DNA of 63,720 bases, filler included, from Folioceros fuciformis (taxonomy: Eukaryota), in NCBI GenBank assembly GCA_049999805.1. It is 13 parts of 13 records of this genome, joined end to end, with 100 filler letters (N's around TTAATTAATTAA, not from the genome) between each part and the next. Parts side by side here need not be neighbours in the genome. Positions count along the whole stretch, not along the records: positions 55,237 to 62,137 come from JBNGIO010001702.1; 12 more parts are not named here. One strand, written 5' to 3'. The first letter of the stretch is position 1; every line of letters begins with the position of its first letter. Position numbers and translations under genes: made by a program. The notes beneath the pieces were generated by a model, which made no database searches, was not told where the DNA came from, and saw only the letters and a program-made list of their open reading frames with translations. Positions 3,446 through 60,350 of this stretch are shown piece after piece.

Positions 3446-3543
3446 TGTGCGTTTGCGGGAGCCTTCTATCTCACCTGCCAGACTTGTAAGGAAGGAGAAG
3501 ACGAATCGGGGAGCGTGTGACACCGAACATTGCCTTCTAGTAC

Positions 3544-5149
3544 ATGGCGGTGGATCAGGATTTCGCTATGGTCTCGCGCTCCGTGCCAAAGTTCAGCGTG
3601 AGTCACCGCAGAAGCTTCAAACCAGAGCGCGCAAAGAGCCATGCGGCGGCAGACGATTGTAGCGGCAGTCAGGACATGAAGCTGCCGGGGTCGAGCCAGG
3701 GGCAGGGTCCGGGAGACGTGTTCCTGCCGGAAGAGATCTGGAGCAAAATATTCGGCTTTCTCCCGGACTTTCAGTCGCGCTGCATCGCAAGGTGCGTTTG
3801 CCGGACGTGGAACTCGGTGCTCTCCGTGGATGGGCCTGCGGGGAGGCAGATGTGGGGGGAGCACTCGCCCGTTTTCTTTCTCGATCGAAACGGATCTGGC
3901 TCCGGCGCGGGGTCAGGCTCCAGCGCCGGCTCAATCTCGCTAGAGAGTGTCGGGTATAACATGCAGACGGAGAATTGGGAGCGGTTGCCGCCTTTCTCCA
4001 GGTCAGGGCGCGGGGGAAGAGTGGTATTCGTGTCAGGAGCAGGCGGGATCTTCTGCTTCGGGACATCGCTAGAAGACTTGTGCGTCACGCTCTGGAACCC
4101 GGCCACGGACTGGAGCGTGGAGCTCCCGGCGGTGAAGAATTTCGGTATGTACTACTGTCGGATGTATAAATGCAATCCCTTGCCGGCGCAGCATGTACGT
4201 AGCAGTAGCCCTGCGCGAATGAGCAGAAGGCGCGCGGATTTCACCATCTTTGCCGCCGGTCTGAAATCTCCCCGGGACTACTCCTCCACGGTTACCTCCG
4301 TCATGCTCTTCCGCTCGGGCTGGAGCGGCTGGGGCACCGAGTACTGCCTCCCAGATGGCTGCAACGTGCTGGTAGGGTCCGTCAACACGCCGGCCAACCC
4401 CGGCTTGCTCTACTGCTTGGTGGAGAAGTCCATCAACCTTCGCGCGGGGATGCATCTGCTAGCCCGCCAGCGCCTGGCCGTGTTCGATCTGGAGCAGGGC
4501 GGCTGGATTAGCAGCGAGGAGATCGCCTCCTCCAAGATCACCGTGGACGGGAAAGAATGCCTGTTGATCCCTAACTGCATCAGCGAGTGGCAGGGCCGCA
4601 TGTTCGGGACCGCGCAACTCCGCCAAGACACAAGTACGTATACACACGCTATCCAATTTGTTGTTGCTGTTGCATCGCTGCACCTTTCGTTCGTTGTTGC
4701 CTCCGCTTCCCACGGGCAGCGTTGTTGACTCGTCCTTCCTTGTCCGCGTCCGTTCAGCCGAGACGTATTTCATTCTGGAGCTGGTGCGCGACGGCGTCCA
4801 GGAAGCTGTGTGGAAGTGGCAGGTGCTGGGGCAAAACCCCTACAGAATCGCCGACATGTCCCGTCAGAGCTCAATTGCCACGCACGATGGCCGCATTGTT
4901 TTCACCCAGTCTTCGCAGTGTAATGCCAAGTGCGCGGTGGACTGCTCAGGCCTGAGAACGGTGTACGATATCAAGAGCGGGTCGTGGACGGACCTCCCGC
5001 ACTCCAGCATCACGCGCCTCACGGCGCATTCGCAGCTCAAGAAACTCAACATGGAGACCCTCAAACTGTGCAACGGCGTCTTCATGCCCAACCTGGAAGA
5101 TGGTCCCGCCAATTTTGCACGTGTGGCGAAACCACTGGAAAAAGTCTGA
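3544..5149 (+). CDS. F-box protein with a probable beta-propeller/kelch-like C-terminus; exons 3544-4633 and 4758-5149 (~493 aa; alternative start 3676)
   Basis: F-box motif LPEEIWSKIFGFLP...RCIARCVCRTWNSVL; repeats YNMQTENWERLP, LWNPATDWSVELP, VFDLEQGGW and VYDIKSGSWTDLP. A phase-1 GTACGT...TTCAG intron (4634-4757) joins ORFs 3544-4728 and 4658-5149 in frame. Confidence 0.85.
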
Positions 5150-7830: not shown

Positions 7831-8777
7831 GGGATCATCAAGCTCGATACGGAGTGGTGGCAGGGTTCTGTCCCCTTTACACCGTGATTGTTTTTGTGAA
7901 AAAGGTTAGGGACCTCTGAAGGGTTGCATGGCTAACTGAAGAACTTGCTCGGGTTTCATTTCAGGACAACAAGGATCGCAGTCGATCCAGTGAGAGTGTA
8001 CCGATCCGGAAATTTCAACAGACGTGTGATTCCCAACGCACTACAGTTGCATGCCTACAGAATACAACATGAGGACAGCCACATAACGTTATCCAGACAC
8101 CGGACACCCTACGCAAGGCTCAGAACAAGAAACCATGTTGACACACTGCGAGGTGCCATCGCGAGGATTGTCGACGCCACGACCAACTACCGCTAGCTTA
8201 TAACACTGCACGGGCATCCTCGACCACAGCTCACACGCGTAAGCATGAATCCGTATTAGGCAGAGGGACGACAGAGCTAGGTATATTCCTCGTGAGCGGT
8301 TTAGCTTTATGAGTTCGAAATTCTTGCCTAAATCGTGCAAGCCGCCATGGACCATGCAAATGACAAAAAAATGGTAAACGTAAAGGCGTGTTGAGCAAGG
8401 AGATGCATGATCCCCTACCCGCTTTAGCAACCATCGTCTTGCAGGTAGGAGGTGCATGAACCCTTGGCCCCTTTGCCCTCGAGCCCGTTCAGCCCTAGGG
8501 CTCTTCTAGCCCTACAAGCCCCTTTAGCAAATCACCATCTTGAAGATCGGAGGTGCATGAGCCCTTGGACTCTTAGCCGCTTTAGCAACCATTTTCTCGC
8601 AGGTAGGAGGTGCAGGTACTACGCCAGGACTCGGTCCTCTGGTGACGAGTGCTTCTTTGTGAGAAGCAGGAGGCAGGTGTGTGTTGGCTAAATTGAGTCG
8701 ATTTCCCATCTCCCTTGTGAGAGTTAACACGAATTCTTACAGCCCTTCAGCCCTTCATCCCTTCGTTACCTAGCAAC

Positions 8778-9551
8778 ATGGGAAGGAAGAAGATAGAAAT
8801 AGTGAAGATCGAGGATCCCACGGCTCGGCAAGTTACCTTCTCCAAGAGGCGGGCAGGATTGTTCAAGAAGGCCAATGAGCTCGCCATTTTGTGCGGTGCA
8901 GAGATTGCCATGGTGGCCTTCTCTGAAGGAGGGAAGTCTTTCACCTTCGGCAGCCCTCAAGTGGACTACGTGATCGACAAGCACGTGCACGATATCGAAC
9001 AACGCGAAGGAGATCCTCCCAACCAGGCCGACTACGTGGATCCCTCCAGAATTGAAGCGATGAAGGGCTTGGAGGACACTTACAACGCAATTAACGAGCA
9101 AATCGTTATTGAGAAGGCGAAGCAGGTTCAACTGATTGCAGAAAAGCAAAGGGCATCAGGGGCAAGTACTAGCGGCACGTCGGACCAGGCCCAGGCCCAG
9201 GCCCCGGCCCAGGCCCAGGCCCAGGACCAGGGCCAGGGCCAGCAGCTCATCGATATGCAATCCCGATTTTGGTGGAGAGATTTTGATGCAGAAGAAATTT
9301 CGGACGTCGAGACTTTGGAGAGCGCAATCAGACTGATGGCCGAGGAAGAAGAACACCTGTATCGACTCATTGAACTTGTTGAAAACGAGCTAGAGGAGCA
9401 GAAAGCTGAGCCGACAGTTGAGCGACAGAATTATGTGTTGGAAAACTCTAACATGTGTCAGGGCAATCATGCGCAGGCTAATCTCCAACATCCCTCCGGG
9501 TACGTACAGTATATATCCTGCGATCTTGTGGCTGCCTTGCTTTTCGTCTAA
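8778..9551 (+). CDS. Type I MADS-box transcription factor (M-alpha/AGL62-like); C-terminus may extend through further exons to ~10180
   Basis: [60 protein letters not shown]; no intron after the MADS box and no K-box; downstream FWW motif and helix typical of M-alpha; Gln-Ala repeat at ~9185-9243. Confidence 0.92.
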
Positions 9552-15900: not shown

Positions 15901-17049
15901 AAGAACTTCGCTCTTTGTACTTCCCCTTTGAAGTGGACCTTCCTCTCACTGTGAGGGCATTGGAACCTTTCGAAGGTTCCATATTCTTCCTGTTCACCTC
16001 CTCTGTTAACAGGCTACCTTCTACATTTACAACGGTAAGACCACTAGCTGGAGCGGAATTACTCATAGCTGTATGAAAGGTGTCCCAGCTCTCTGGTAAT
16101 GTGACCAACAGAAACATAGCTCTCATGGAATCTGGGAACGAGATACCTTGAGATGAGAGCTAGCTGAAAATGGTATTGAACTCGTTTAGATGATTGGACA
16201 TCCTCGTCCCTTCCTTCATCTTCAAGTCCACCAGTTGTTTCAACCAGTACACTTGAGAAGCCGCACTTTGCTTCTCGTACAGGTCACACAACTTTTGCCA
16301 TAGCTTGTAACTTGTGGTCTGTTTTTCACGTTGAAGTAGACCGACTTCGACAATGTTAGCATGATGGTAGACCTAGCAAGCTCATCTAGATCCTGCCACT
16401 CATCCTGAGTCATGCTAACGGGTGTCACTCCTAGCAACTTGATAGGCTTGATCTGCTTCTTCTGTACTAGAACATTATATGCTTGTTCTTTCCAAAACGG
16501 GAAGTTAGTTGCCTAGCGCCCGACTCGCGCCCGCGGCCGAGCGCCCTCCTCTTTGCGCCCCACTCCTAGCGTCCTTGCCGAAGTATGGCGGCCCGTGCTA
16601 CTGTTGCCCCTCCCCTGAGCACGTCGAGGTTGGAGACTCCTGTCGCCCCGGAATGCCACACACACTCGGATGAGTTCCTCATGGTCGCCTTGCTCAATTC
16701 CTCCGCAGCAATTGCAGTCATCACCCTTGCTCCATACCAAGCTCTGATACCACTTGTAGGATCGCTAGAAGGAGCTACTTGGTGAAGGAGAGGAGAGGAG
16801 GAGGCAAGGAGGAGAGGAGAAAGAGAGGTCACACTCTCACAATAGAGTCTCTATAGCAAGGGAGCTCAAGGGGGTATTTATACCCTTTAGAAGAGCTCCC
16901 TAGGAAGCTTTGCAAGAAGCGCACAGGAAGCTGCGCAAGAAGCTTCCTACAAATTAGCTTAAGCTAATATAAACTAATGGTACTTAACTAGACACTAATC
17001 TTAGACTAAACACATTAGTCTAAGCTCATTGGGCTTTAATAACCCTACA
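12909..17049 (-). mobile_element. Ty1/Copia (Tnt1/Tork-like) family A, copy 1: 5' LTR 16755-17049, PBS-Met 16741-16752, degenerate gag-PR-INT-RT-RH
   Basis: LTR TGTAGG...CCTACA; PBS TGGTATCAGAGC on the minus strand; gag NFPFWKEQ; integrase LELVHSDVCGP, LRTDNGGEY, PQNGVAERMNRT; RT LYVDDMLI; RNase H DADYAGDMDKRRSTSGY; several stops and frameshifts. Confidence 0.95.
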
Positions 17050-18024
17050 CTCCAATCTGTGTGAACTACAAAGGGCATGTTAAAATTGGGTCTGGCCAAC
17101 ATTGGTGCAACGATTAGCTCCAGCTTTAAGGTGTCAAAAGCTTGTTGTGCCTGTTCTGCCCATGTCCACTCTATATCCTTGCGCAGCAAATCATTAAGAG
17201 GCTTGGCAATCTTGCTGAAATTGGGTATGTATCTCGATAGTAATTGCATATTCCTAGAAATGCACGCAGGGCTGATACGGTGGTCGGTTCCTTAACTTGC
17301 ATAATTGCCTAAACCTTGGCAGCATGTGGGGTGACACCATTGGGAACAATTTTGTGGCCCAAATACGCCATAGTGCTCATGCCAAACTCACACTTGGCTG
17401 GGTGGCATGTGAGTTGTGCCTTCTGCAACCTTACAAACAGGTCTTCCAGGTGTACCAAATGATCCTCGAAGTCCATGTTGTGGACTAGCACATCATCAAT
17501 GTAGCACATGAGATAGCCGGCTCTAGCTAGTACTATGTCCATGATGCGCTGAAAGGTCATTGGCGCATTCTTGAATCCAAAGGGCATCATTAGCCATTCC
17601 CATAGCTGTTGAGAACCATGGAAGGCTGTCTTCTTGATATCTTAAGCTGCCACTAGGACCTGGTTAAACCCTTGTCGCAGGTCCAGTGTGGAGAAGAACA
17701 TAGACTGTCCAATACGGTCAAAGATCTCCTATGGTGTCGGCATTGGGTACCAATCCTGGGCAGTTATTGTGTTGATGGGCCTATAATCGCCACACATCCT
17801 CTTCTCAATCCACAAACCCTAGTTGTCCTCTTTGGGTGGCATCACAGTGATAGCAGCATAGTCACTGTTAGAAGGACGTATTAGGTCTGCCTCATACAGT
17901 TCCTTGCATCTTGCATCCACCATGTCCCATTCCAAATTACTCAACCTATACTGTCGCATGTATACAGGCTCTTGGGTGGTAAGGTTGATGCGCAAGGTTG
18001 TGACATTGCACCTCTTGAGCTTAA
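17050..18024 (-). pseudogene. Ty3/Gypsy reverse transcriptase to RNase H start, fragment cut on both sides by Copia LTRs
   Basis: EKRMCGDYRPIN, FSTLDLRQGFNQ, KTAFHG, MPFGFKNAPMTFQR, CYIDDVLVH, YLGH, FVVHTDWS; internal stops. Confidence 0.92.
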
Positions 18025-25900: not shown

Positions 25901-26190
25901 TTTAGCGTGTTGCTGGCTGTACAACGTCTGGTAGGATTGCGGGCAGCGTGTTGCCGGTTGTATAGTGTCTGGTAGGATCACAAGGTGTAATGACCAGGGT
26001 GAAAGGGCTTGCCCCTAGCTCTTGATTGTAAAGGATGTGTCTTTCTCTCAACCTGTCCACTCTTGTTCCCTGTTTGGACAAGTGCTGTAGNNNNNNNNNN
26101 NNNNNNNNNNNNNNNNNNNNNNNNNNNNNNNNNNTTAATTAATTAANNNNNNNNNNNNNNNNNNNNNNNNNNNNNNNNNNNNNNNNNNNN

Positions 26191-29100
26191 AGATCGCCCT
26201 GTAGGATGGTCTCCTTCTTCCTCAACCTACCATCGTGGCGGTTTTTCCTTTGCTCTTCATCCTCCTGTGGATCTTCATTCTCCACCACTTCAGTATGGAA
26301 ACAAGTCACCTCTTGACCCAAATCCACCATCCTGACAGTATGCCCTACTCCCTTGTAGGCTCCTGTACTGCTGGAAGTGCTACCTCCAACACTACCGGAT
26401 GTGTACCCGGGGGATGGTCCTGTTGTTTCTCCCCCATAGGGAGCTTTGCTCCACGAGACAAACGAAACTTTAGTAGGTCCTGTAGGTTTAGACCTAAAGG
26501 TCACACCTTTCCTGCCAAAATCAAACACACAAGCTGTCCCGTACAACCACGGTCTCCCAAGGAGCACCTTGTACCCTAGGTCAGACACTGGCCTCATGAC
26601 AATGTAGGTTAGCTTGAACATGATCCCTCCTATCACCGTGGGCACATCCTTCAACACTCCTAGAGGCTTCCTCTTGGTCTGATCTGCCATCCGAAGGTAC
26701 ACGCGGATAGGGTCAAACTCCGTGAACCCCAAACGATGGGATGTGTCCTCCATCATGAGATTGACACCAGACCCCGTATCCAACGGTACATCCGGTACCA
26801 GACAACCTGCAATCTTCACCTCTATTTTAGGAGCTCCACAATCAGCCAACTCCACTGAACTCATCCAAGTCGGGACTGTCTTCCCTTCGAGTGGCTCCGG
26901 TATCCCTCAGATGGCTTCCTTGACGATCTTCCTGGCCTTGGGACTAACAGACAAGAGCTGCCTCAAGCTCACCACAAACTCCTGGTCAAGCAACGCGTCA
27001 GCAAATCCAGCAACCTTCATGGCCAAAGCCTCCCTTGCTGTTGTTGTCTTAGGAGGATTGATCCCTCCATCCTCCTTGCTTCGATCAACCTTGCACTCTC
27101 CACCACCCCTGTCACAAGAGGGTCTGCAAATGTGAACTTCTTAGACCGGTGCATCAGCCTAGTCAGCTCTTCCTCCAGCATTGCAGCAACCTCCTTGCTG
27201 ATGTCGGGTGGAAATGCTAATTCTTCAACCTCTCCTTCATCTAGTTCACCTTCCTCTCGATGAGGTGGAACAACCTCTTGTCCAATCGACACATCATTCT
27301 TCCCTTGCTGGACGAGTGGTTCCTCCCTTGCCTCTGGTGGATTAGGAGTGTTGTAACGTTCTCTCCTCCTTCTCTTCTCTTCCTTCTTCGTCCTCTCCCG
27401 ATAACGACGTTCAGAACGAGTGGTGACCCTTGCCACCATGACTTCTTCACCATCGCTAGCTTCGCCTGAATATCCCTCCTCCACAATGCCAGAAAATGCT
27501 TGAGAGTCAATCAAAGGCTCCTCCTCGGCCTCCACCGACAACACAGGTGCGCTTGTCACCGGAGCTGCTGTCTTCACCGCGGGAGGAAGTCCCTCTTGCG
27601 GTGCCTCCGTGATCCTCACTCCAAATCTAGGCAGCGCAGGCCTAGGGATGCCCGAACACCTTGGATCCCCAGCCCTGTGCCCTGGATCCTTACACACCTG
27701 ACAAAACAGCACAAATCCAAGTTGCCTACGTGGCTCTATGCACTCGTTAGCATAGTGTCCCGGCAAGCCACAATTAAAACAACAACCTGCTGCCACCACT
27801 TGTGGACGCTGGGATGGATCTGGCCTCCAATGGCCTGGAGATACTGGACGAGGACCATACCTCATTCCAGGAGGTCCTGGTGGTTGGAAAGATGGCCGAA
27901 TGGACTGTGGTGGTCGAGGAGCAGTCACAGCCTGTACCTGATAGGAGTCATCCACGTACCAATAGTCTCCTGATAGGTAGGTGTCCACTTGGTTGACGGC
28001 GTGGCGGGGAGCCCTAGTGCACTCTTGGTGGGTGTGTCCTGATTGGTGACAAATAGAACAGTACACCAGCTGCCGACCCGGTGAAGGTGACCTCCTTGGT
28101 GCTTGGTTGCGTACAGCCTTCACCTCCAACTCGGCCAGCCTCCTCGTCAATGCCTCAACCTGACTGGTCAGTCCTCCACCACTTGAGGACGGTTCGCCTC
28201 TCTCCATCCTATAGGATCCTTTGCCTCTCTTGTCCTTCTCAGCTCGACGATCCTCATCCTCCTCACGCCTCTTGCGTGCTTTCTCCAGATCCTTCCTCAT
28301 CCTCTTCTCATGAGCCTTATCGGACTCCTCATCGGTGTAAGGATCCGACACAAGGCTGTCATAATCTGAATCAGAGTGAGACGGTGACCTCGACCTTGAA
28401 GAGGAAGATGGGCTGTGATGCCTCGACCTCCTATGATGCCCATACTTCCGGTTCTGCTTCCTCTTCTCTCTGCTAAACTCCGAAAGCTCAAAATCTTCAG
28501 CAGCCTTCAAAGCCTCCTGCAAAGTGGTCACACCTCTTGTGCAGTAGGTTGCCATCCTATCGGGTAGTCCTCCAGCAAACCAATCCAAAGCTTGAGCATC
28601 CGTGTACCCTGGAGTACTCGGACCTCCTGGGACAACTGGCCTACCACGTGGGATCCTGTCCACATAGCTGTAGAACCTCTCAATGTAGTCATAGAGATCC
28701 TCCTTCCTTCCTCGCTTCAAAGTCCTCAACCTCGCGTAGGTGTGATGGCCATGGCTGAGACCTCGAAACCTGGTCAAGAAATCGTCCTTCAGGCTGTCCC
28801 AATCCACTAGTTGTGTCACTCCATACGTCCGACTGTACCACTGCTGAGCTTGTCCTCTCAGCAAACCTGGAAAGATCCTCAAACGATCAGCTGTAGTGTC
28901 CTCCATGTTGGCACGAGACACATGCTCGAACGTCCTCAGGAAGGATTCAGCATCCTCCCCTCTTCTCTTGTCTCCAAACTTCACGTATTGTTGACGACTG
29001 TGAATAGGAGCAGCCATCCTTGCAGCAACTCCTCCACCCACTTGGCTGATACTTGACGTAGGAAGTACTGCCCCTACTGAAATCACTACGGGGGCTGACA

Positions 29101-30121
29101 ATGGAACAATGGCCGGCAAGGGGACTAACTGACCACCAACAAGTGACTGCAAGCTATCCAGCAATGATACCACAACTGAAGTATCACCTAGAGTTGACTG
29201 CACAACACTCGACTGTAACACGGACTCCCTCTCAACCCAACCCACTTGTTGGCTGTAAGACTCCTTCCTGCAACAAGATGTAATACCAACCTCCTGGATG
29301 TCACGCTCTCCGGCAATCAACCCTTCAGATTCGTGCTCTCCACTTCACCAAGGCAGCTCCTCCTGCACAAGGGTGCTAGCCTTAGGGGTCAAGCTACTCT
29401 CTCCTCTCAGCAAATTCCTCCATGTTGCACGCAGATCCCTTCTACCAGTTCTGCGATCACCTCTTCCATCAGACATCTACAGGACAACTTAGACTCTCCA
29501 TCCGATCAGCAAAAGAAACTCCCAAGCCGCTCCCCGGCAACGGCACCAAAAATGTGGAGGCAAAACCCCGGGCACTGATTGCCAACGGGTTCCACCTTTA
29601 GTGGCCACACTTATCCCGCTGTCGTTGAGACATTGGGTTTCGTTCCCACGAAGGAGCGATGGGGTTCCTTGCTGCTGTGGATGGAGGGTCGGACTTGATC
29701 GACTCAATGATGGATTCGAGGGCTCCCCTCTAGCTCCGATCAGGCGTAGGACAGGCCTCGTTGTCCGGCGGTCAGCTGCACCTCTCTCGGTGCCCACAAA
29801 CTCACTCCAGTCACTACAACGACCCTAACCTCTTAGATCTGCGACTTCCCTTATTCACTTGACTCACTCTTTCACTCCAGCTCCAGCACCAGCAACTAAG
29901 AATGACACCACTACCTTCTACACTTCCCTATTGAGTCCTCCTACTCGGCAAGAGTCACTAGACTAACCCCAAAGGAAAGAAAGAAGGGATCACACTCTCC
30001 CCCCACACCCCCTCGGATATCTCCTCCCCACAACCTTACCAGACGCCATGAAACATGACCGGCCTACAACACTTGAGAAAGAGAGGTCACAATGTCTCTC
30101 ACAGCTCTCTCCCATCTCTCT
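26191..30121 (-). mobile_element. Ty3/Gypsy (Athila/Tat-like) 5' half: LTR 29553 to beyond 30121, tRNA-Asp-type PBS 29531-29548, gag 27017-29320 with three CCHC knuckles, protease 26191-26864
   Basis: LTR end GCCTCCACA followed by TGGTGCCGTTGCCGGGGA; retrotransposon gag (LRGQAQQWY, WDSLKDDFLTRF); CSICHQSGHTHQEC, CFNCGLPGHYANEC, CQVCKDPGH; protease LDTGSGVN...VLLGRPWL. Confidence 0.93.
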
Positions 30122-36262: not shown

Positions 36263-37097
36263 GTATTATCTATAGTCTCCCCCTATTGGATCTTTGTGTA
36301 CCTCAAAAAGTCTCCTTCACTTGTTTCCCACTTAGCACAAAAAAACATTCTTCTTTCTATGGAAACACAATTTGAAGTGGTGCTTGCTCCATTGACATAC
36401 ATAATAACCCCTAGCTCTACCCATATTGACATTCGATTACTTGGTAAGTGCACTTTCTTCAATAAATTCTGCCTCCACACTTTCCTTACGTACCACAAGC
36501 ATAGTAATATAGGCATATTACGATTCCACATTGAACAAATAGTAGCAATCTTTGGCTGATAATCATCAACAAGGAATGAACTTGGTGTCCAATCCTTGTT
36601 GATCTTTTCAACCTTCTTCCGTAAAGATGACAGCCAACTGATAAGAGACTCCGTAGTAGCATATTTTGTAATAGCCCATGCTACTGGAACTCCATTCAAA
36701 CAATGGCCAAAAGCCATAACTGTGAATAAGTGGTAGCGATACCTGTTCAACCCCAAAGTTGTATCCATAGCTAGCACATTATTATTCCCATAAAGCAACA
36801 TGAAATTTAACATAAAAGGAGTTTGGATACCTAAAGCAAAAGGTTGATTCCTGTTAATTGGTGGAAAACTATAGACGCATTTTGCTCCAACCACAGTGAC
36901 ATTGATGTGGCATCATCTGGGGCTAGCTTCCATTCACCAACTTCAACTTGTGTAACTATCTTGAGAACGTCATATCTCTGCATGTAATCATCTCTTACTA
37001 CCTCATATACCTTCGTCTTGTTGTTGATTTGAGCGTATAATGCATCTAAATGTCTGCGCATTATTTCATCAATAGGAACTTTGCAATATAGACAATG
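36263..37097 (-). pseudogene. Mutator-like (MULE) transposase fragment
   Basis: FALGIQTPFM...AMDTTLGLNRYRYHLFTVM...GVPVAWAIT...WTPSSFLVDD...LLCLWYVRKVW matches the MULE DDE-domain pattern; frameshifted and cut by the family X insertion. Confidence 0.85.
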
Positions 37098-55136: not shown

Positions 55137-55585
55137 NNNNNNNNNNNNNNNNNNNNNNNNNNNNNNNNNNNNNNNNNNNNTTAATTAATTAANNNNNNNN
55201 NNNNNNNNNNNNNNNNNNNNNNNNNNNNNNNNNNNNTATATACACGCAAATATGTAAAGGCACGAAACGTGCCCTAGTGAAACATCACCCGTCAACCATC
55301 GTACAGGTTCACGGGACACGGCCATAAAGGGCCTCACTCACACACATTCAAGTTGATTCATTCATTCATGCTTCTTTTCTACGCTAGTTTGTCGATCCTA
55401 TTTACGCTAGTTAGGTCAATAGGGGAATAAAAAGATATCAGCTCTGTAGGAGGATTTGATATTTTGTGTCAAAAGTTTGTTGGAGTTGTGTATTAAGGCA
55501 AGAATAGCTAAAGTAAAAATTCAAGAACTTTTTCAGGAGGTCATTTCTTTTCAACATAAAGATAACTCAGCGGCTAAGCAAAACT

Positions 55586-56060
55586 GTGGCATTTTGTGTG
55601 GATAATGGTCAAAGGACTTTCGAACAAAGAGTGAAAGTTAAGATGAGGATTGCATTTTTAGACAATAGCAAACAGGATTTCTTAATAGATGGCTTTGCTC
55701 CAGCAAAGTTGTTGATTGATTCGGGAGCTCAACCCACTTTGATACATTTTAGCACAACATATGCGATGGTATTAAGGAGAAGGGATGTATAAGAGACCAA
55801 GTAGAAAATTAGAATGGCTAATGGAGGTTTAGAGATGATGATGGTAGAGATAAAAGAAACATTACAGTTGTGCTTTAAGCTTGGAATTGAGGAGGAGACC
55901 ACTATAGAAATGAGGTGCTTGATTGTCAAATCTGGAAACTTTGATGTTATTCTACGAACAGAAGCTTTGTTTATGGAGGGGCTATGGACTTATGGATAGA
56001 AGAATTTTATTTTCGTCTAGGATGGCGACAAGGGGATGGAATGAATTTGGCAACTATTCC
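55586..56060 (+). pseudogene. Retropepsin (Gypsy-type aspartic protease), degenerate
   Basis: LLIDSGAQPTLI (DSG at 55718-55726)...KIRMANGG...CLIVKSGNFDVILRTE; in-frame stops and one frameshift. Confidence 0.82.
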
Positions 56061-56275
56061 ACTAAAGTTGCAGTGGAAGGAGGATGAGTAGGATGCATGT
56101 GTGGTGAACATGATGACTTCTTTAGGAGGACAGGATGAGGAGGATGAGGAAGATAAGTTGTGGGTGGTGTGTCATATGTGAGAGTTGTGCACTAATGAAT
56201 GCAGCGGTGTCAAAGTGGATGAGGATTCGATGAGACCAGATGTTGTTAGAGCATTAGCTAACATTTTTAGAGAGC

Positions 56276-57133
56276 TTGAAAAGGTACACTGAATTTCAAC
56301 TAGATGATAAGATTCATGCTTGTACAAAGCAGGTAGTATGTAAATTGGAAATTGTGTGTAATAAACTTGTGTCTTTGAGTTCATCGGTGCATGGATTGGT
56401 TGTGGTTGAGTTGTTTGCTAGAATTGCATCTGGTTTGGAGGCTGTACTGGCTGCTGGTTTTACAGTCAAATGTTACATTTATTGTGATCTAGATGAAGTT
56501 TGTCAAACTATTGCAAAGTCTAGATTGTTTAAGTTGTGTAGGAAGTATTTGGAGCGGTTGAAACTTGAGGCTGTCAAACAGTCATTTTCTACTCGGCCAC
56601 AAGATGTTAGGCTCATTGGGTCAGTGCAATTTCAGATGGTAGAGGAGATTGATCTTGTAGTTGTGGGTTGGGAATGTCAAGGGCACTCAATGGCAGGAAA
56701 AGGAAAAGGGCTAATGGATTATAGAATGTCAAGGGCACTCAATGGCAGGAAAAGGAAAAGGGCTAATGGATTATAGACCTGTGTTATTTTATGAGCTAGT
56801 AAGGATTTTAAATTTTACACAAGAACATCAAAAGAAGGAATGTGGGTATTTAATTGAGAATGTAGATTCTCATATGGATAGAAGGGTTCTATTGAGACAG
56901 GATTTTGAGGAAATCAAGTATTATTTGGGAGAGCGTATACGGTTGGATGCAGTACAGTTTGGATCAAGGGCTCATAGGCTTCGATGTTTTTGGAATAATA
57001 TGATTCACAAGCATTTGTTGCAGAGACATGTACATCGGTGGCATAGGAATGAGGAGCTTACAATTGATTAGATCTTGGATGAAGGGCGAGTGAGTAGGCG
57101 AGTGGTTTTGGATGATTGGCAACCCTTTTATTG
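56276..57133 (+). pseudogene. C5-cytosine DNA methyltransferase domain (DNMT3-like), retrotransposon-borne, frameshifted and truncated
   Basis: Motif I VVELFARIASG (FxGxG with G>R); motif II YIYCDLD; motif III QDVRLI; motif IV IDLVVVGWECQGHSMAG (catalytic Cys); motif V LFYELVRIL; motif VI YLIENV; motif VIII DAVQFGSRAHRLRCFWNN. Confidence 0.9.
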
Positions 57134-57748
57134 TGATGAAATATATCTAGTTTAGGGCACTATTCATTAGGGAACCTTACTTAAACATTATTATTATATA
57201 TCTAAGGCATTAAGTAGTTACTTAATTAGTTGCTCTAGATAGTTAGTTGTTATATTAGTTGCAACTTTTTAGTGGTTACAACAACTTATGGTTGTAACCA
57301 CTTAACCACCTAGCCTATAGAAAGGCTTGTACTCTTTACTTTCATAATTCCAAGCACATTGTAGCACTTTTGCCTAAGAGCTATTGATTCTCATCATGGT
57401 ATCAGAGCAAGTAGCTCTCTATGCTTGAGCTCTACACTCCTTGCTGCCCAATGCTACTCTAGCTCTCTTCTATTGCCAACAATGCATCGTGGAGGCTTCA
57501 TTCTGGGCAGCAATCAAGTATAGCATCAGGTGCTCTATGGATGCACCATTTGTGCATCCATTTCTTGTTCGCTCTCCATGGATTCTCGAAATCCTAGCGA
57601 ACATGGAAGAAGGTGGAAAGTTAAGACACAAAGAAGGAGGAGGCAACATCAAAACTTTATAGAAGCATCATCAGTGGAGTTTGAAACTAACTCCCCTATT
57701 AAATGTGATATGCTTGAAGTCCATGTTTGTAACCTCATATTTGGTCTT
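57134..57748 (+). mobile_element. LTR retrotransposon 5' end inserted in the DNMT: LTR 57134-57396, PBS-Met 57397-57408
   Basis: TGATGA...TCATCA perfect terminal inverted repeat followed directly by TGGTATCAGAGC. Confidence 0.88.
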
Positions 57749-60239
57749 TGAAGGAATGCTCTAGGAACCACATGGTGAAGGAGAAGAGAGGAGGAGGCAA
57801 GGAGGAGGAGAAACAGAGAACACACACTCACAATAGAGTCACACCAATACATGGGAGCTCAAGGGGGTATTTATACCCTCTAGAAGAGCTCCCTAGGAAG
57901 CTTCTCAAGAAGCCCACAGGAAGCTGCACAAAAAGCTTCCTATGGATTAGCTTAAGCTAATCTAAACTAATGATACTTAACTAGACACTAATCTTAGACT
58001 AAACATATTAGTCTAAGCACATTGGGCTTTAATAACCCTACAACCGCCCCCTTAAAGGCCAATTTACCTTCATAGGGGAGTGGTCTACCTCATGCCCATG
58101 AGTGTCCGAGCTTGTGCGAATTGCTCCCAAGAGAGCCCCTTGGTAAGAACATCTGCAGGTTTCTGACTAGTGTGAACTTTGACAAGCTGTACCCTCTTGT
58201 CTTCCAACACCTCTCGAATGAAGTGATACTTCACTTCCATATGTTTGGTCTTCGCATGAAACACTGGATTCTTCGCCAATTGGATAGCACTCTGGCTATC
58301 ACAATGCAACACTACGAACGCAACCTTGATCCCTAAATCTCCCACTAGACGAGCAAGCCAAATGGCTTCCTTGCATGCCTCAGTCTTTGCAACATACTCG
58401 GCCTCTGTGGTAGATAGCGTAATGCAAGATTGCAAACGAGATCGCCATGAAACTGCCTCTCCTGTGCACATGAAGACATAACCTGATGTGGACCTCCTTT
58501 TGTCCATATCCCCTGCATAATCAACATCCGTATATCCCACGATAGATGCATCTTCACTACCAAAACATAAGCACAAAGCTTTCGTACCATTCAAGTACCT
58601 CATAACTCCTTTCACTGCCTCCCAATGCTTCCTACCAGGGATTGACATAAACCTGCTAACCACTCCCACTGCAAAGGCAATGTCAGGACGTGTAACAATC
58701 ATTGCATACATCAAACTCCCTATAGCTGATGAGTATGGAACCTTCCCCATTTCAGCTTTGTCCTCCACAGAGCTTGGGCAATCCTTGCTCGATAGTTTCA
58801 CATATGGAGGCAACGGAGTACTTAATACCTTCCTCTTCTTCATATTAAAACGTTGAAGCACCTTGTTAATGTATTTAGTTTGAGACAAGTACAGCAAACG
58901 CTTGTGTCTGTCTCGACGAATACACATGCCAAGGATATGGCTTGCCACTCCCAAGTCTGTCATGTCAAAGCGATTATTCAACTTTGACTTCAACGCTGAA
59001 ATCTCATCACTATTAGTCCCAGCAATTAGCATATCATCCACATAGAGGACCATAATGAGCAAGCTTCCATCCTTAGCTTGCTTCGTATAGAGGCAATGAT
59101 CCTCATCGCTACACTTGTAGCCTTGAGAAAGCATAAATGAGTGGAACTTGAAATACCACTTCCTGGGTGCCTGCTTCAAACCATAAAGGCTCTTCTGTAA
59201 CCTGCACACCATATTCTCTTTGCCCTTCTCAATGAAACCCTCTGGTTGCTGCATGTATACCCCTTCCTGGAGATCACCATGCAAAAATGCCGACTTCACA
59301 TCCATCTGGACAAGTTCCATGTCAAGCCTCGCAACCAGACTAAGAACACATCGCAAGGTGGTCATTTTGACAACCGGTGAGAAAATCTCATCAAAGTCAA
59401 TATCTTGCTGTTGCTTAAAACCCTTCGCAACCAATCGTGCCTTGTACTTGGGTTTGCCATAATGGGGTATGTCCTTCATCTTATACACCCATTTGCATGG
59501 CAACGCCTTCTTGCCCTTAGGCAACCGAACCAACTCCCAAGTTTGGTTCTTGTGGAGCGAATCCATCTGCGACTGCATCGCCTTCTCCCACTTGTCCTTG
59601 TCAGTCAATGACATGGCCTCTTGATAACAAGAGGGCTCCCCACAATCCGTCAGCATGACATAATCAAGAGATGCAACATACCTGTCAGGGGAACGTCAGA
59701 TCCTGCCTGACCTACGAAGCAATGGCGCGTGGACCGGAGCTGGTTGCAATCTCTCCTCTTGTACAAGTGGAGGAACTTGTTCCTGCACATCACAACGTTC
59801 AACTTGCGCAGGACGGTCACTTGGGTGCCAACTTGTCTCGAAACTCCTTAGGAACATGGTAGTATGCCTCGCAGCCAAACACTCGTAGATGCTTGTATGA
59901 TGACTTCTTTTCAGACCACATCTCCTCTGGAACCTATTCATCCATAGCCCTATTAGGAGATCTGTTAATAAGATGCACCGCAGTAGCCACTGCTTCTGCC
60001 CAAAATCTGTTAGGCAATCCAGAGTTTGACAATAAACTACGCATCCTCTCCTGGATGGTCCTGTTCATCCGTTCAGCCACACCATTCTGGGGAGGAGTAT
60101 ATGGCGCAGTCAATTCTCTCTTGATTCCCTTGGAATCATAGAATGACCGGAAAGCCTTCGAGACATACTCTCCCCCATTGTCAGTCCTCAGACACTTCAG
60201 CCGGAGGCCAGACTGATTCTCCACAAGGGTGACAAATTT
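57749..60239 (-). mobile_element. Copia family A, copy 4: 3' LTR 57749-58042, PPT 58043-58056, open RT-RNase H ORF 58085-59656, partly deleted integrase
   Basis: LTR homologous to 16755-17049; AAGGGGGCGGT PPT; 523-aa ORF with YVDD, LHCDSQSAI and KTKHM; deletion at ~59820. Confidence 0.96.
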
Positions 60240-60350
60240 CCTAAAGGGTGTGACCTTTCACTAGCCTAGCTAATTAACCTTACACATAGTGTGCTAAGCT
60301 AACATGACTTAGGGTTACATAACTCTAGTGAACTGCTACCCCTTCTAACT
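60240..60350 (-). mobile_element. Partial LTR of the 31660-31864 family
   Basis: CCTAAAGGGTGTGAC...AACTCTAGTG...TACCCCTTCTAACT shared with 31755-31864. Confidence 0.85.

Follow-up and report, generated by a model that had tools for sequence, protein, structure and literature searches.

The question raised by this locus is whether a retrotransposon protease and a cytosine-5 (C5) DNA methyltransferase (DNMT), which follow each other on the plus strand in a decayed state, belonged to one former polyprotein. The locus lies in a window of 63,720 nucleotides from Folioceros fuciformis (assembly GCA_049999805.1), that is, the whole stretch of DNA analyzed here. The window consists of contigs of 3-11 kb chained at 12 places by N44-TTAATTAATTAA-N44 linkers carrying stops in all six frames; a finding that spans a linker would therefore join unrelated DNA. 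The DNMT fragment sits in the contig at 55237-62137, and its true context is 6.9 kb only. Our analysis indicates that positions 55410-57133 are very probably a decayed, twice-truncated piece of a Ty3/Gypsy long terminal repeat (LTR) retrotransposon, the polyprotein of which was ordered gag-protease (PR)-DNMT-reverse transcriptase (RT)-RNase H (RH)-integrase (INT) and contained a DNMT of the DNMT3 type.

Protease and methyltransferase on one strand of one contig

A preliminary description of this DNA had placed a retropepsin and a C5 methyltransferase on one strand of one contig, and this was borne out by family profiles, by the Pfam model PF00145 and by tblastn with relatives. The element fragment comprises about 1.7 kb (55410-57133), and both contig depth and loose contig ends indicate that other repeats cut it on either side. 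Its first part (55410-55612, plus strand) lies 5' of the protease core; the frame reads KFKNFF...LIDGFAPAK and gag is missing. Diverged contigs of the same organism begin at 55417-55448 and continue into the protease.

The retropepsin (55613-56088, plus strand) was recognized with a profile of its relatives and by tblastn in three pieces (DSGAQ ... FDVILRTEAL ... GAMDLW). Three-frame translation of 55517-55999 gave ...LLIDSGAQ...RMANGG...FDVILRTEALF in frame 2 (coordinate modulo 3), with in-frame stops at 55790 (TAA) and 55802 (TAG). A frameshift was placed between 55945 and 55999, and the protease resumes in frame 1 as ...GAMDLWIEEFYFRLGW... up to 56088. The Pfam model PF13975 scored 12.6 bits against a cut-off of 28.2 (E=0.22), with DSGAQ and FDVILRTEAL visible; the proteases of the relatives P0005 and P0036 reach or approach Pfam cut-offs themselves. 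A profile of 141 positions was built from the proteases of six relatives in which the protease precedes the DNMT. The three pieces of the window matched it one after another (positions 2-40, 48-107, and 107-137) with E-values of 1e-3 to 1e-4, and these were the top three among the 1518 open reading frame (ORF) pieces of the window. In tblastn, residues 987-1115 of relative P0008 aligned to 55613-55984 (E=1e-10) and residues 242-440 of P0005 aligned with E=4e-17. Of the check proposed earlier with generic models, the methyltransferase part succeeded, and homology of the protease was significant by way of the relatives.

The protease is followed by the acidic linker (56089-56380, plus strand). 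The acidic stretch itself is present as described, but the open read-through that had been claimed for it is not, with stops at 56089 (TAG) and 56179 (TGA); three-frame translation further revealed a frameshift between 56258 and 56290. The spacing between protease and DNMT amounts to about 100 residues here and to 37-145 residues in the relatives.

Of a C5 methyltransferase of the DNMT3 type, the N-terminal two thirds with motifs I-VIII are present at 56381-57133 (plus strand), as determined with PF00145 and a family profile. PF00145 reached 24.3 bits (cut-off 22; E=2.5e-5) on 56715-57071 and stayed below the cut-off with 14.1 bits (E=0.031) on the other piece, 56258-56776. The profile of the family's DNMT domain scored 135 and 131 bits on the two pieces. 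Motifs I, IV (GWECQG), VI (YLIENV), and VIII (QFGSRAHRLRCFW) follow in order, and IV, VI, and VIII are intact. GWECQG had been regarded as an unusual motif IV; it turned out to be the norm of the family, as its pattern DL[LVI][VIF]AGW[EPS]C and the alignment show, and the column is conserved in relatives of both architectures described below. Among 61 relatives, 22 columns show at least 90% conservation, and the domain keeps 21 of these. The one missing is the second glycine of motif I, which is part of the cofactor-binding loop: motif I reads ELFARIASG, with Arg where at least 90% of these relatives have Gly (ELFGG to ELFAR).

The DNMT starts in frame 2 and moves to frame 0 after an exact tandem duplication of 52 bp (56672-56777, plus strand; 2.0 copies, 100% matches, score 212 in Tandem Repeats Finder), which lies inside motif IV and its flank and causes a +1 frameshift within the domain. 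From there it reads like the relatives up to 57133, apart from an in-frame stop at 57069 (TAG). No intron-like gaps were found in the alignment of this DNMT to its relatives, in agreement with the preliminary description.

Relatives of the fragment and their domain orders

Positions 56258-56776 were searched against 1.84 billion protein cluster representatives. At E<=1e-3 this gave 418 DNMT relatives, of which 113 passed E<=1e-10, and the top match was 48% identical; over all relatives found, identity to the window copy was 33-48%. A protein atlas search returned generic phage and bacterial DNMT clusters only. The domains of 152 proteins were sorted with self-built profiles for protease, DNMT, RT, RNase H, and integrase, which were made from members of the set; a Pfam scan covering 90 of the 152 relatives agreed with this sorting.

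Two architectures became apparent. In 24 of the 152 proteins the DNMT stands after PR and/or before RT or RH, and 17 of these read PR-DNMT, the others being individual arrangements that extend to the full order in P0131; the protease directly precedes the DNMT in 20 of the 152 relatives. In 55 proteins the DNMT stands after RT/RH and/or before INT, the full ones being mostly RT-RH-DNMT-INT, often with a PHD finger and sometimes with a G-patch. The remaining 73 are DNMT-only pieces. Pfam located zf-CCHC at 530, the DNMT at 978-1226, RVT_1 at 1421, RNase H at 1638, and rve at 1967 in P0131, which reads PR-DNMT-RT-RH-INT; it also found protease then DNMT in P0005 and P0036, and DNMT then RVT_1 in P0044 and P0079. 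The window fragment aligns to single relatives in the same order, since P0005 and P0008 match the DNMT (E=4e-27 and 3e-26, respectively) as well as the protease. Three of the 152 proteins (P0100, P0116, and P0106) also carry a Copia RVT_2 or a Dam domain and may be chimeric gene calls or belong to a different kind of element.

In a second search, an alignment of 12 DNMT domains of the PR-DNMT type was compared with proteins of 1491-4255 residues. It yielded 65 matches at E<=1e-10; ten of them carry organism names, and all ten names are green algae: Closterium sp. NIES-53 (two), Cymbomonas tetramitiformis (five), and Scenedesmus sp. PABB004, Monoraphidium neglectum, and Chlamydomonas eustigma (one each). 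The top match was P0273 from Closterium sp. NIES-53 with the order PR-DNMT-RT-RH-INT, which was found in seven of ten further proteins examined, P0273 included. The order gag-PR-DNMT-RT-RH-INT that had been predicted for this element exists among its relatives; PR-DNMT-RT together with RH and INT is present in P0131, P0273, P0274, P0276, P0277, P0279, P0280, and in the metagenome loci L001 and L004.

These two loci belong to 20 loci from metagenomes of the Joint Genome Institute (JGI). PR stands before the DNMT in 11 of the 20 and RT after it in eight; in L007 the DNMT is followed by a weak integrase match. A nucleotide search of the fragment against the 20 loci gave no match. At the protein level, identity was 32-60% per local match and highest on stretches of 30-45 residues. 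A single in-frame TAG is the only stop in the 1776 codons of L001 and in the 2417 codons of L004. This TAG occurs at the same codon (D-stop-Q) in L001 (position 4661), L004 (5083), and L003 (2081), copies that are 73-78% alike, and it divides gag-PR-DNMT from RT-RH-INT within the same frame in all three. L003 additionally has a TGA at 704. A reassigned stop codon in the metagenome loci was considered and rejected, because TAA, TAG, and TGA all occur in frame. The proteins P0008 and P0275 end shortly after the DNMT. Conservation of the TAG suggests a programmed stop-codon read-through, as far as can be judged from these sequences.

Tree placement and kinship of the methyltransferase domain

The identity of the window DNMT to both architectures is similar (37-41%), and trees told the two apart. 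FastTree was run on 92 rows (91 well-covered proteins and the window) over the 235 columns covered by the window. All 14 rows of the PR-DNMT type fell into one clade with the window, 10 DNMT-only rows, and P0106 (support 0.912). The 62 rows chosen for a quick IQ-TREE run comprised the window, 27 rows of the PR-DNMT side, 28 of the other architecture, and six newly added PR-DNMT proteins of full length. The split between the architectures obtained a Shimodaira-Hasegawa-like approximate likelihood ratio test (SH-aLRT) value of 88, and the RT-RH-DNMT-INT core one of 97 with the window outside. From this side of the tree and the protease directly upstream, the fragment was placed in the PR-DNMT-RT lineage.

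A profile of the PR-DNMT clade was compared with solved structures and matched 57 distinct sequences at E<=1. The first 29 were all DNMT3A, DNMT3B, or DNMT3C (E 1e-23 to 9e-19), followed by tobacco DRM (1.7e-10), M.HhaI (9e-9), DRM2 (1.9e-8), and then DNMT2; no DNMT1 or chromomethylase chain was among the matches at E<=1. Motifs I, IV-VIII, and IX-X are aligned in the order of DNMT3, without the rearrangement of DRM. The DNMT3 likeness proposed earlier was supported for the family: judged by sequence, the likeness holds for the clade profile, not for the pieces of the window alone.

State of this copy and further copies in the same organism

The window copy is dead. It contains five in-frame stops, two frameshifts, the 52-bp duplication, and the Gly-to-Arg exchange in motif I, and it is truncated at both ends. 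On the 5' side it is cut off by an unrelated high-copy repeat (55238-55409, strand not assigned) with loose contig ends at about 55409; the summed contig depth is 324-524 over this repeat vs 25-190 over the element. On the 3' side the DNMT is truncated by a Copia element, of which the LTR and the 3' untranslated region lie at 57134-58084 (minus strand); the sequence from 57134 begins with TG. Through this insertion at 57134, the copy has lost motifs IX and X and the target-recognition part. The boundary is real: contigs of this 3' repeat, likewise high-copy, match from 57133/57134 onward and carry unrelated sequence before, contig depth rises to 420-740 past 57134, and seven loose ends per run were found before 57133/57134. 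Both the death of the copy and the LTR beginning at 57134 had been described correctly. The conserved columns are well kept, which suggests that the copy may derive from a once-constrained gene and has not been drifting for long without constraint.

Further copies were sought in three DNA-like runs (X1, X2, and X3), all from one sample and possibly the source of the window's own assembly. Single positions of the DNMT are covered by at least 8-11 distinct diverged contigs; a letter other than that of the window was found at 56446 in eight contigs of X1 and 11 of X2, and at 56935 in 10 and 11, respectively. Diverged contigs of the organism, 80-95% alike, cover protease, linker, and DNMT. One of them (X2 record 11) spans 55622-56145 from protease to linker with 100 differences, and X3 records 22 (56034-56417) and 21 (55975-56201 plus 56320-56459) lead, likewise diverged, from the linker to the start of the DNMT. 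Several contigs per position together with these bridging contigs indicate that the DNMT is not single-copy and that its linkage to the protease recurs; a single-copy DNMT or one lacking the protease elsewhere, named beforehand as arguments against the retrotransposon reading, were both not seen.

Where the window copy differs from the other copies, the change is usually a transition (345 of 506 places in X1). In X3, unlike X1 and X2, nearly all differences among those listed are full-depth changes from C to T (142 C>T places). The library of this run appears to have been converted, by bisulfite or by enzyme; if so, the methylation state of the repeat family could be read from it.

Weighing the explanations

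Several observations weigh against assigning the fragment to a PR-DNMT-RT retrotransposon. RT, RNase H, integrase, gag, and LTR of the DNMT element are all absent from the contig, so the full structure is taken from relatives of 33-48% identity. Terminal repeats were not seen at the window fragment, both ends of which are cut by other repeats, and were not found in the four longest metagenome loci (L001, L004, L011, and L015), the flanks of which are possibly too short. The window is a long branch in the IQ-TREE analysis, its position inside the PR-DNMT side being unsettled. With the window pieces alone, DNMT3 and bacterial enzymes are not separable: one piece matched M.HhaI with E=0.0027 vs DNMT3C with 0.0036, and the other matched only M.HhaI (E=0.26). 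The contigs on 55238-57400 numbered 230, 241, and 196 in the three runs at >=80% likeness (114, 130, and 120 of them <90% alike), but these counts include the two flanking high-copy repeats, and depth does not equal copy number. Finally, a Gypsy DNMT of Klebsormidium produced no methylation in yeast, a result called inconclusive by its authors (PMC5890265).

The fragment might alternatively be a pseudogene of a host DNMT3 that came to lie beside a retrotransposon protease by chance or by processing. In its favour, the family profile is DNMT3-like, and the region consists of repeats nested in one another, where unrelated pieces do lie side by side. The explanation is nevertheless very improbable, because the single proteins P0005 and P0008 match protease and DNMT in the same order, the protease directly precedes the DNMT in 20 of the 152 relatives, motif IV is GW[EPS]CQ as in the retroelement family and not SPCN as in DNMT3A, and the diverged contigs (X3 records 21 and 22, X2 record 11) bridge protease end, linker, and DNMT start. 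An assembly chimera or a contaminant contig appears just as hard to defend. The diverged copies in the same runs are many, and in two runs contigs identical to the window were found for 55359-56001 and 55979-56417; these contigs are possibly the source data of the window and then not independent. Furthermore, the interrupting Copia has nearly the same integrase peptide (59934-60257, minus strand, further on from its RT/RNase H frame) as a Copia on a different contig (52638-53129), so that the contig with the fragment belongs to the same genome as its neighbours. What speaks for a chimera is the strong fragmentation of the assembly into contigs of 3-11 kb and the exact 52-bp duplication, which is possibly an artefact and for which no confirming contig was among the matches listed.

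A non-autonomous or deleted derivative, in which a deletion in a parent of the RT-RH-DNMT-INT-PHD type joined protease to DNMT, is slightly less improbable and still unlikely. The RT-RH-DNMT-INT order is found in 55 of the 152 relatives, shortened forms exist among the database proteins (P0048, P0060, and P0063), and the identity of the DNMT is similar for both architectures. Against this, the window DNMT stands outside the RT-RH-DNMT-INT core and on the PR-DNMT side of the tree, and both the protease and the spacing of about 100 residues match the PR-DNMT relatives. An origin from a Gypsy element of the order PR-DNMT-RT is therefore preferred.

Proposed role of the methyltransferase in intact elements

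This copy itself does nothing. In Ty3/Gypsy elements generally, particles form from the polyprotein, which the protease processes, and cDNA synthesis by RT takes place inside them. In intact members of the family, the polyprotein would likewise be packaged and processed. The methyltransferase, whether released or still part of the precursor, could methylate the new cDNA or the new insertion using S-adenosylmethionine, and the new copy would enter the genome already bearing the mark of the host. In the sub-lineage nearest to the window by tree distance (P0008, P0275, L001, L003, and L004), the DNMT is the last domain of the first frame; RT-RH-INT would be made only by read-through of the conserved TAG, and the DNMT would accordingly be present in Gag-like amounts. 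The cleavage from the polyprotein and the self-methylation of cDNA considered here are a published hypothesis; self-methylation was put forward by de Mendoza et al. 2018 (PMC5890265).

Comparison with known systems

The kind of element is already known and has been in print since 2018; the fragment is a further, dead member. In KnitGypsy-Dnmt3 of Klebsormidium nitens (PMC5890265), a Gypsy element, the Pol ORF includes DNMT3-type domains that lack introns and are under purifying selection, and the terminal repeats follow the arrangement known from DIRS elements. It resembles the window family in its intronless, non-rearranged DNMT3-type domain in Gypsy Pol, its multiple copies, and its conserved catalytic residues. 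It differs in that the window copy is dead; no Klebsormidium sequence was identified among the matches.

Polyproteins of the order RT-RH-DNMT-(G-patch)-INT-PHD from the chlorophytes Scenedesmus sp. PABB004 (named 'pol'), Monoraphidium neglectum, Chlamydomonas eustigma, and Cymbomonas tetramitiformis contain the same DNMT family (GWECQ, YLIENV, GSRAHR.R..W; 37-41% identity to the window). In contrast to the window element, their DNMT is located between RNase H and integrase, mostly with a C-terminal PHD finger, and forms a separate clade (SH-aLRT 97). Retrotransposons with a cytosine methyltransferase in Pol also include SymbioDIRS-Dnmt3 and, from Euglena gracilis and C. tetramitiformis, the EpiLTRs. 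SymbioDIRS-Dnmt3 differs from the window element by its DIRS backbone and tyrosine recombinase; its domains from Symbiodinium methylate CG de novo in yeast (PMC5890265). The EpiLTRs differ by an added adenine methyltransferase and a chromodomain, and their DNMT is placed beside DNMT4, not DNMT3, in bioRxiv 10.64898/2026.05.21.726589. Among the relatives, P0106 (1417 aa) is EpiLTR-like, with the family DNMT at 633-769 plus a Dam domain at 1221-1292, and stands on the PR-DNMT side of the tree.

Host DNMT3A, DNMT3B, and DNMT3C and plant DRM2 are the best matches of solved structure (DNMT3A, E 1e-23), and the linear order of motifs I-X is shared with DNMT3. The window family differs from them by lacking PWWP and ADD, by GWECQ instead of SPCN, by the absence of the DRM rearrangement, and by its location inside a retroelement polyprotein. 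For streptophytes, the accessible parts of PMC12344493 cite only the 2018 case, as "LTR Copia and DIRS", and those of bioRxiv 10.64898/2026.05.21.726589, which deals with adenine methyltransferases, cite only the same case as "streptophytes (Gypsy-DNMT3)". A DNMT-carrying Gypsy element of a land plant was not found reported in the parts available of the literature searched, which excluded subscription journals.

Neighbouring repeats and other features of the window

Around the fragment, the G+C content is 0.36-0.40 at 56001-57000, and 0.50-0.60 is reached on other contigs; the GC skew of +0.46 at 56001-57000 corresponds to a strongly C-depleted coding strand. Beyond its LTR, the inserted Copia continues with an RT/RNase H reading frame (58085-59695, minus strand; PF07727 RVT_2, E=2e-73). 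The window also holds many further Copia elements. A self-search of the window detected no second copy of the protease or the DNMT, and Rfam gave 0 matches over the whole window.

A degraded Gypsy RT/RNase H fragment is located at 17040-18022 (minus strand) on a separate contig and is physically unlinked to the DNMT fragment. It contains at least one frameshift and has Copia pieces on its flanks. Its identity to the RTs of PR-DNMT-RT polyproteins is 45-52% (tblastn: P0277 49%, E=1e-91; P0079 52%) vs only 39-40% to the RT-RH-DNMT-INT type (P0001 and P0003); by this likeness, it may belong to the same lineage as the DNMT element. At 26142-29344 (minus strand), a long open Gypsy gag frame of 775 aa (Retrotrans_gag) is followed by a frame of 255 aa with a weak retropepsin match; it is cut by the contig end and has no detectable similarity to the DNMT-carrying polyproteins. 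The protease match at 26142-26906 (minus strand; E=0.0065) was examined as a family member and rejected, as it showed no similarity to the family polyproteins, and is taken as a probable ordinary Gypsy protease.

Host and significance

Host-like frames of plant type occur on other contigs, namely XendoU (1945-2679), F-box (3541-4728), MADS-box (8721-9551), and MULE transposase (36283-36912). The MADS-box (SRF-TF) ORF comprises 276 aa, with no K-box match. The XendoU ORF is 74% identical to a EukProt transcriptome protein and, among the best 120 matches, 48-56% identical to all named land plants, including angiosperms, the fern Adiantum (54%), and the liverwort Calypogeia (52%). A 41-row tree unites it with the transcriptome protein (100); next to join, weakly, are Adiantum and two further rows (85), outside the angiosperms (98). 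The branch of the window XendoU is long. A streptophyte alga and a land plant outside the seed plants would both agree with this placement. Embryophyte names dominate among the named XendoU matches; there are 0 among the 10 named members of the DNMT family. The land-plant host assumed earlier was therefore not established by the window sequence, with XendoU at 48-56% to named land plants and the named DNMT relatives algal. We regard it as possible, though rather doubtful, that the host is a non-seed embryophyte in which a DNMT3-Gypsy lineage was still transposing after the move to land, with the DNMT made in structural amounts, which would suit the coating or marking of cDNA more than a task for catalytic traces of enzyme.

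A dead fragment alone adds little. Its DNMT belongs to a large family of 418 clusters with two fixed architectures and separate DNMT clades, and the near-intact natural copies L001, L004, and P0273 appear usable to test DNA methylation by Gypsy-borne DNMT3s. Retrotransposons that carry the class of enzyme with which their hosts silence them represent a rare and poorly understood turn in the conflict between genomes and their parasites; if the host is a land plant, the known range of DNMT-carrying Gypsy elements would extend beyond the algae.

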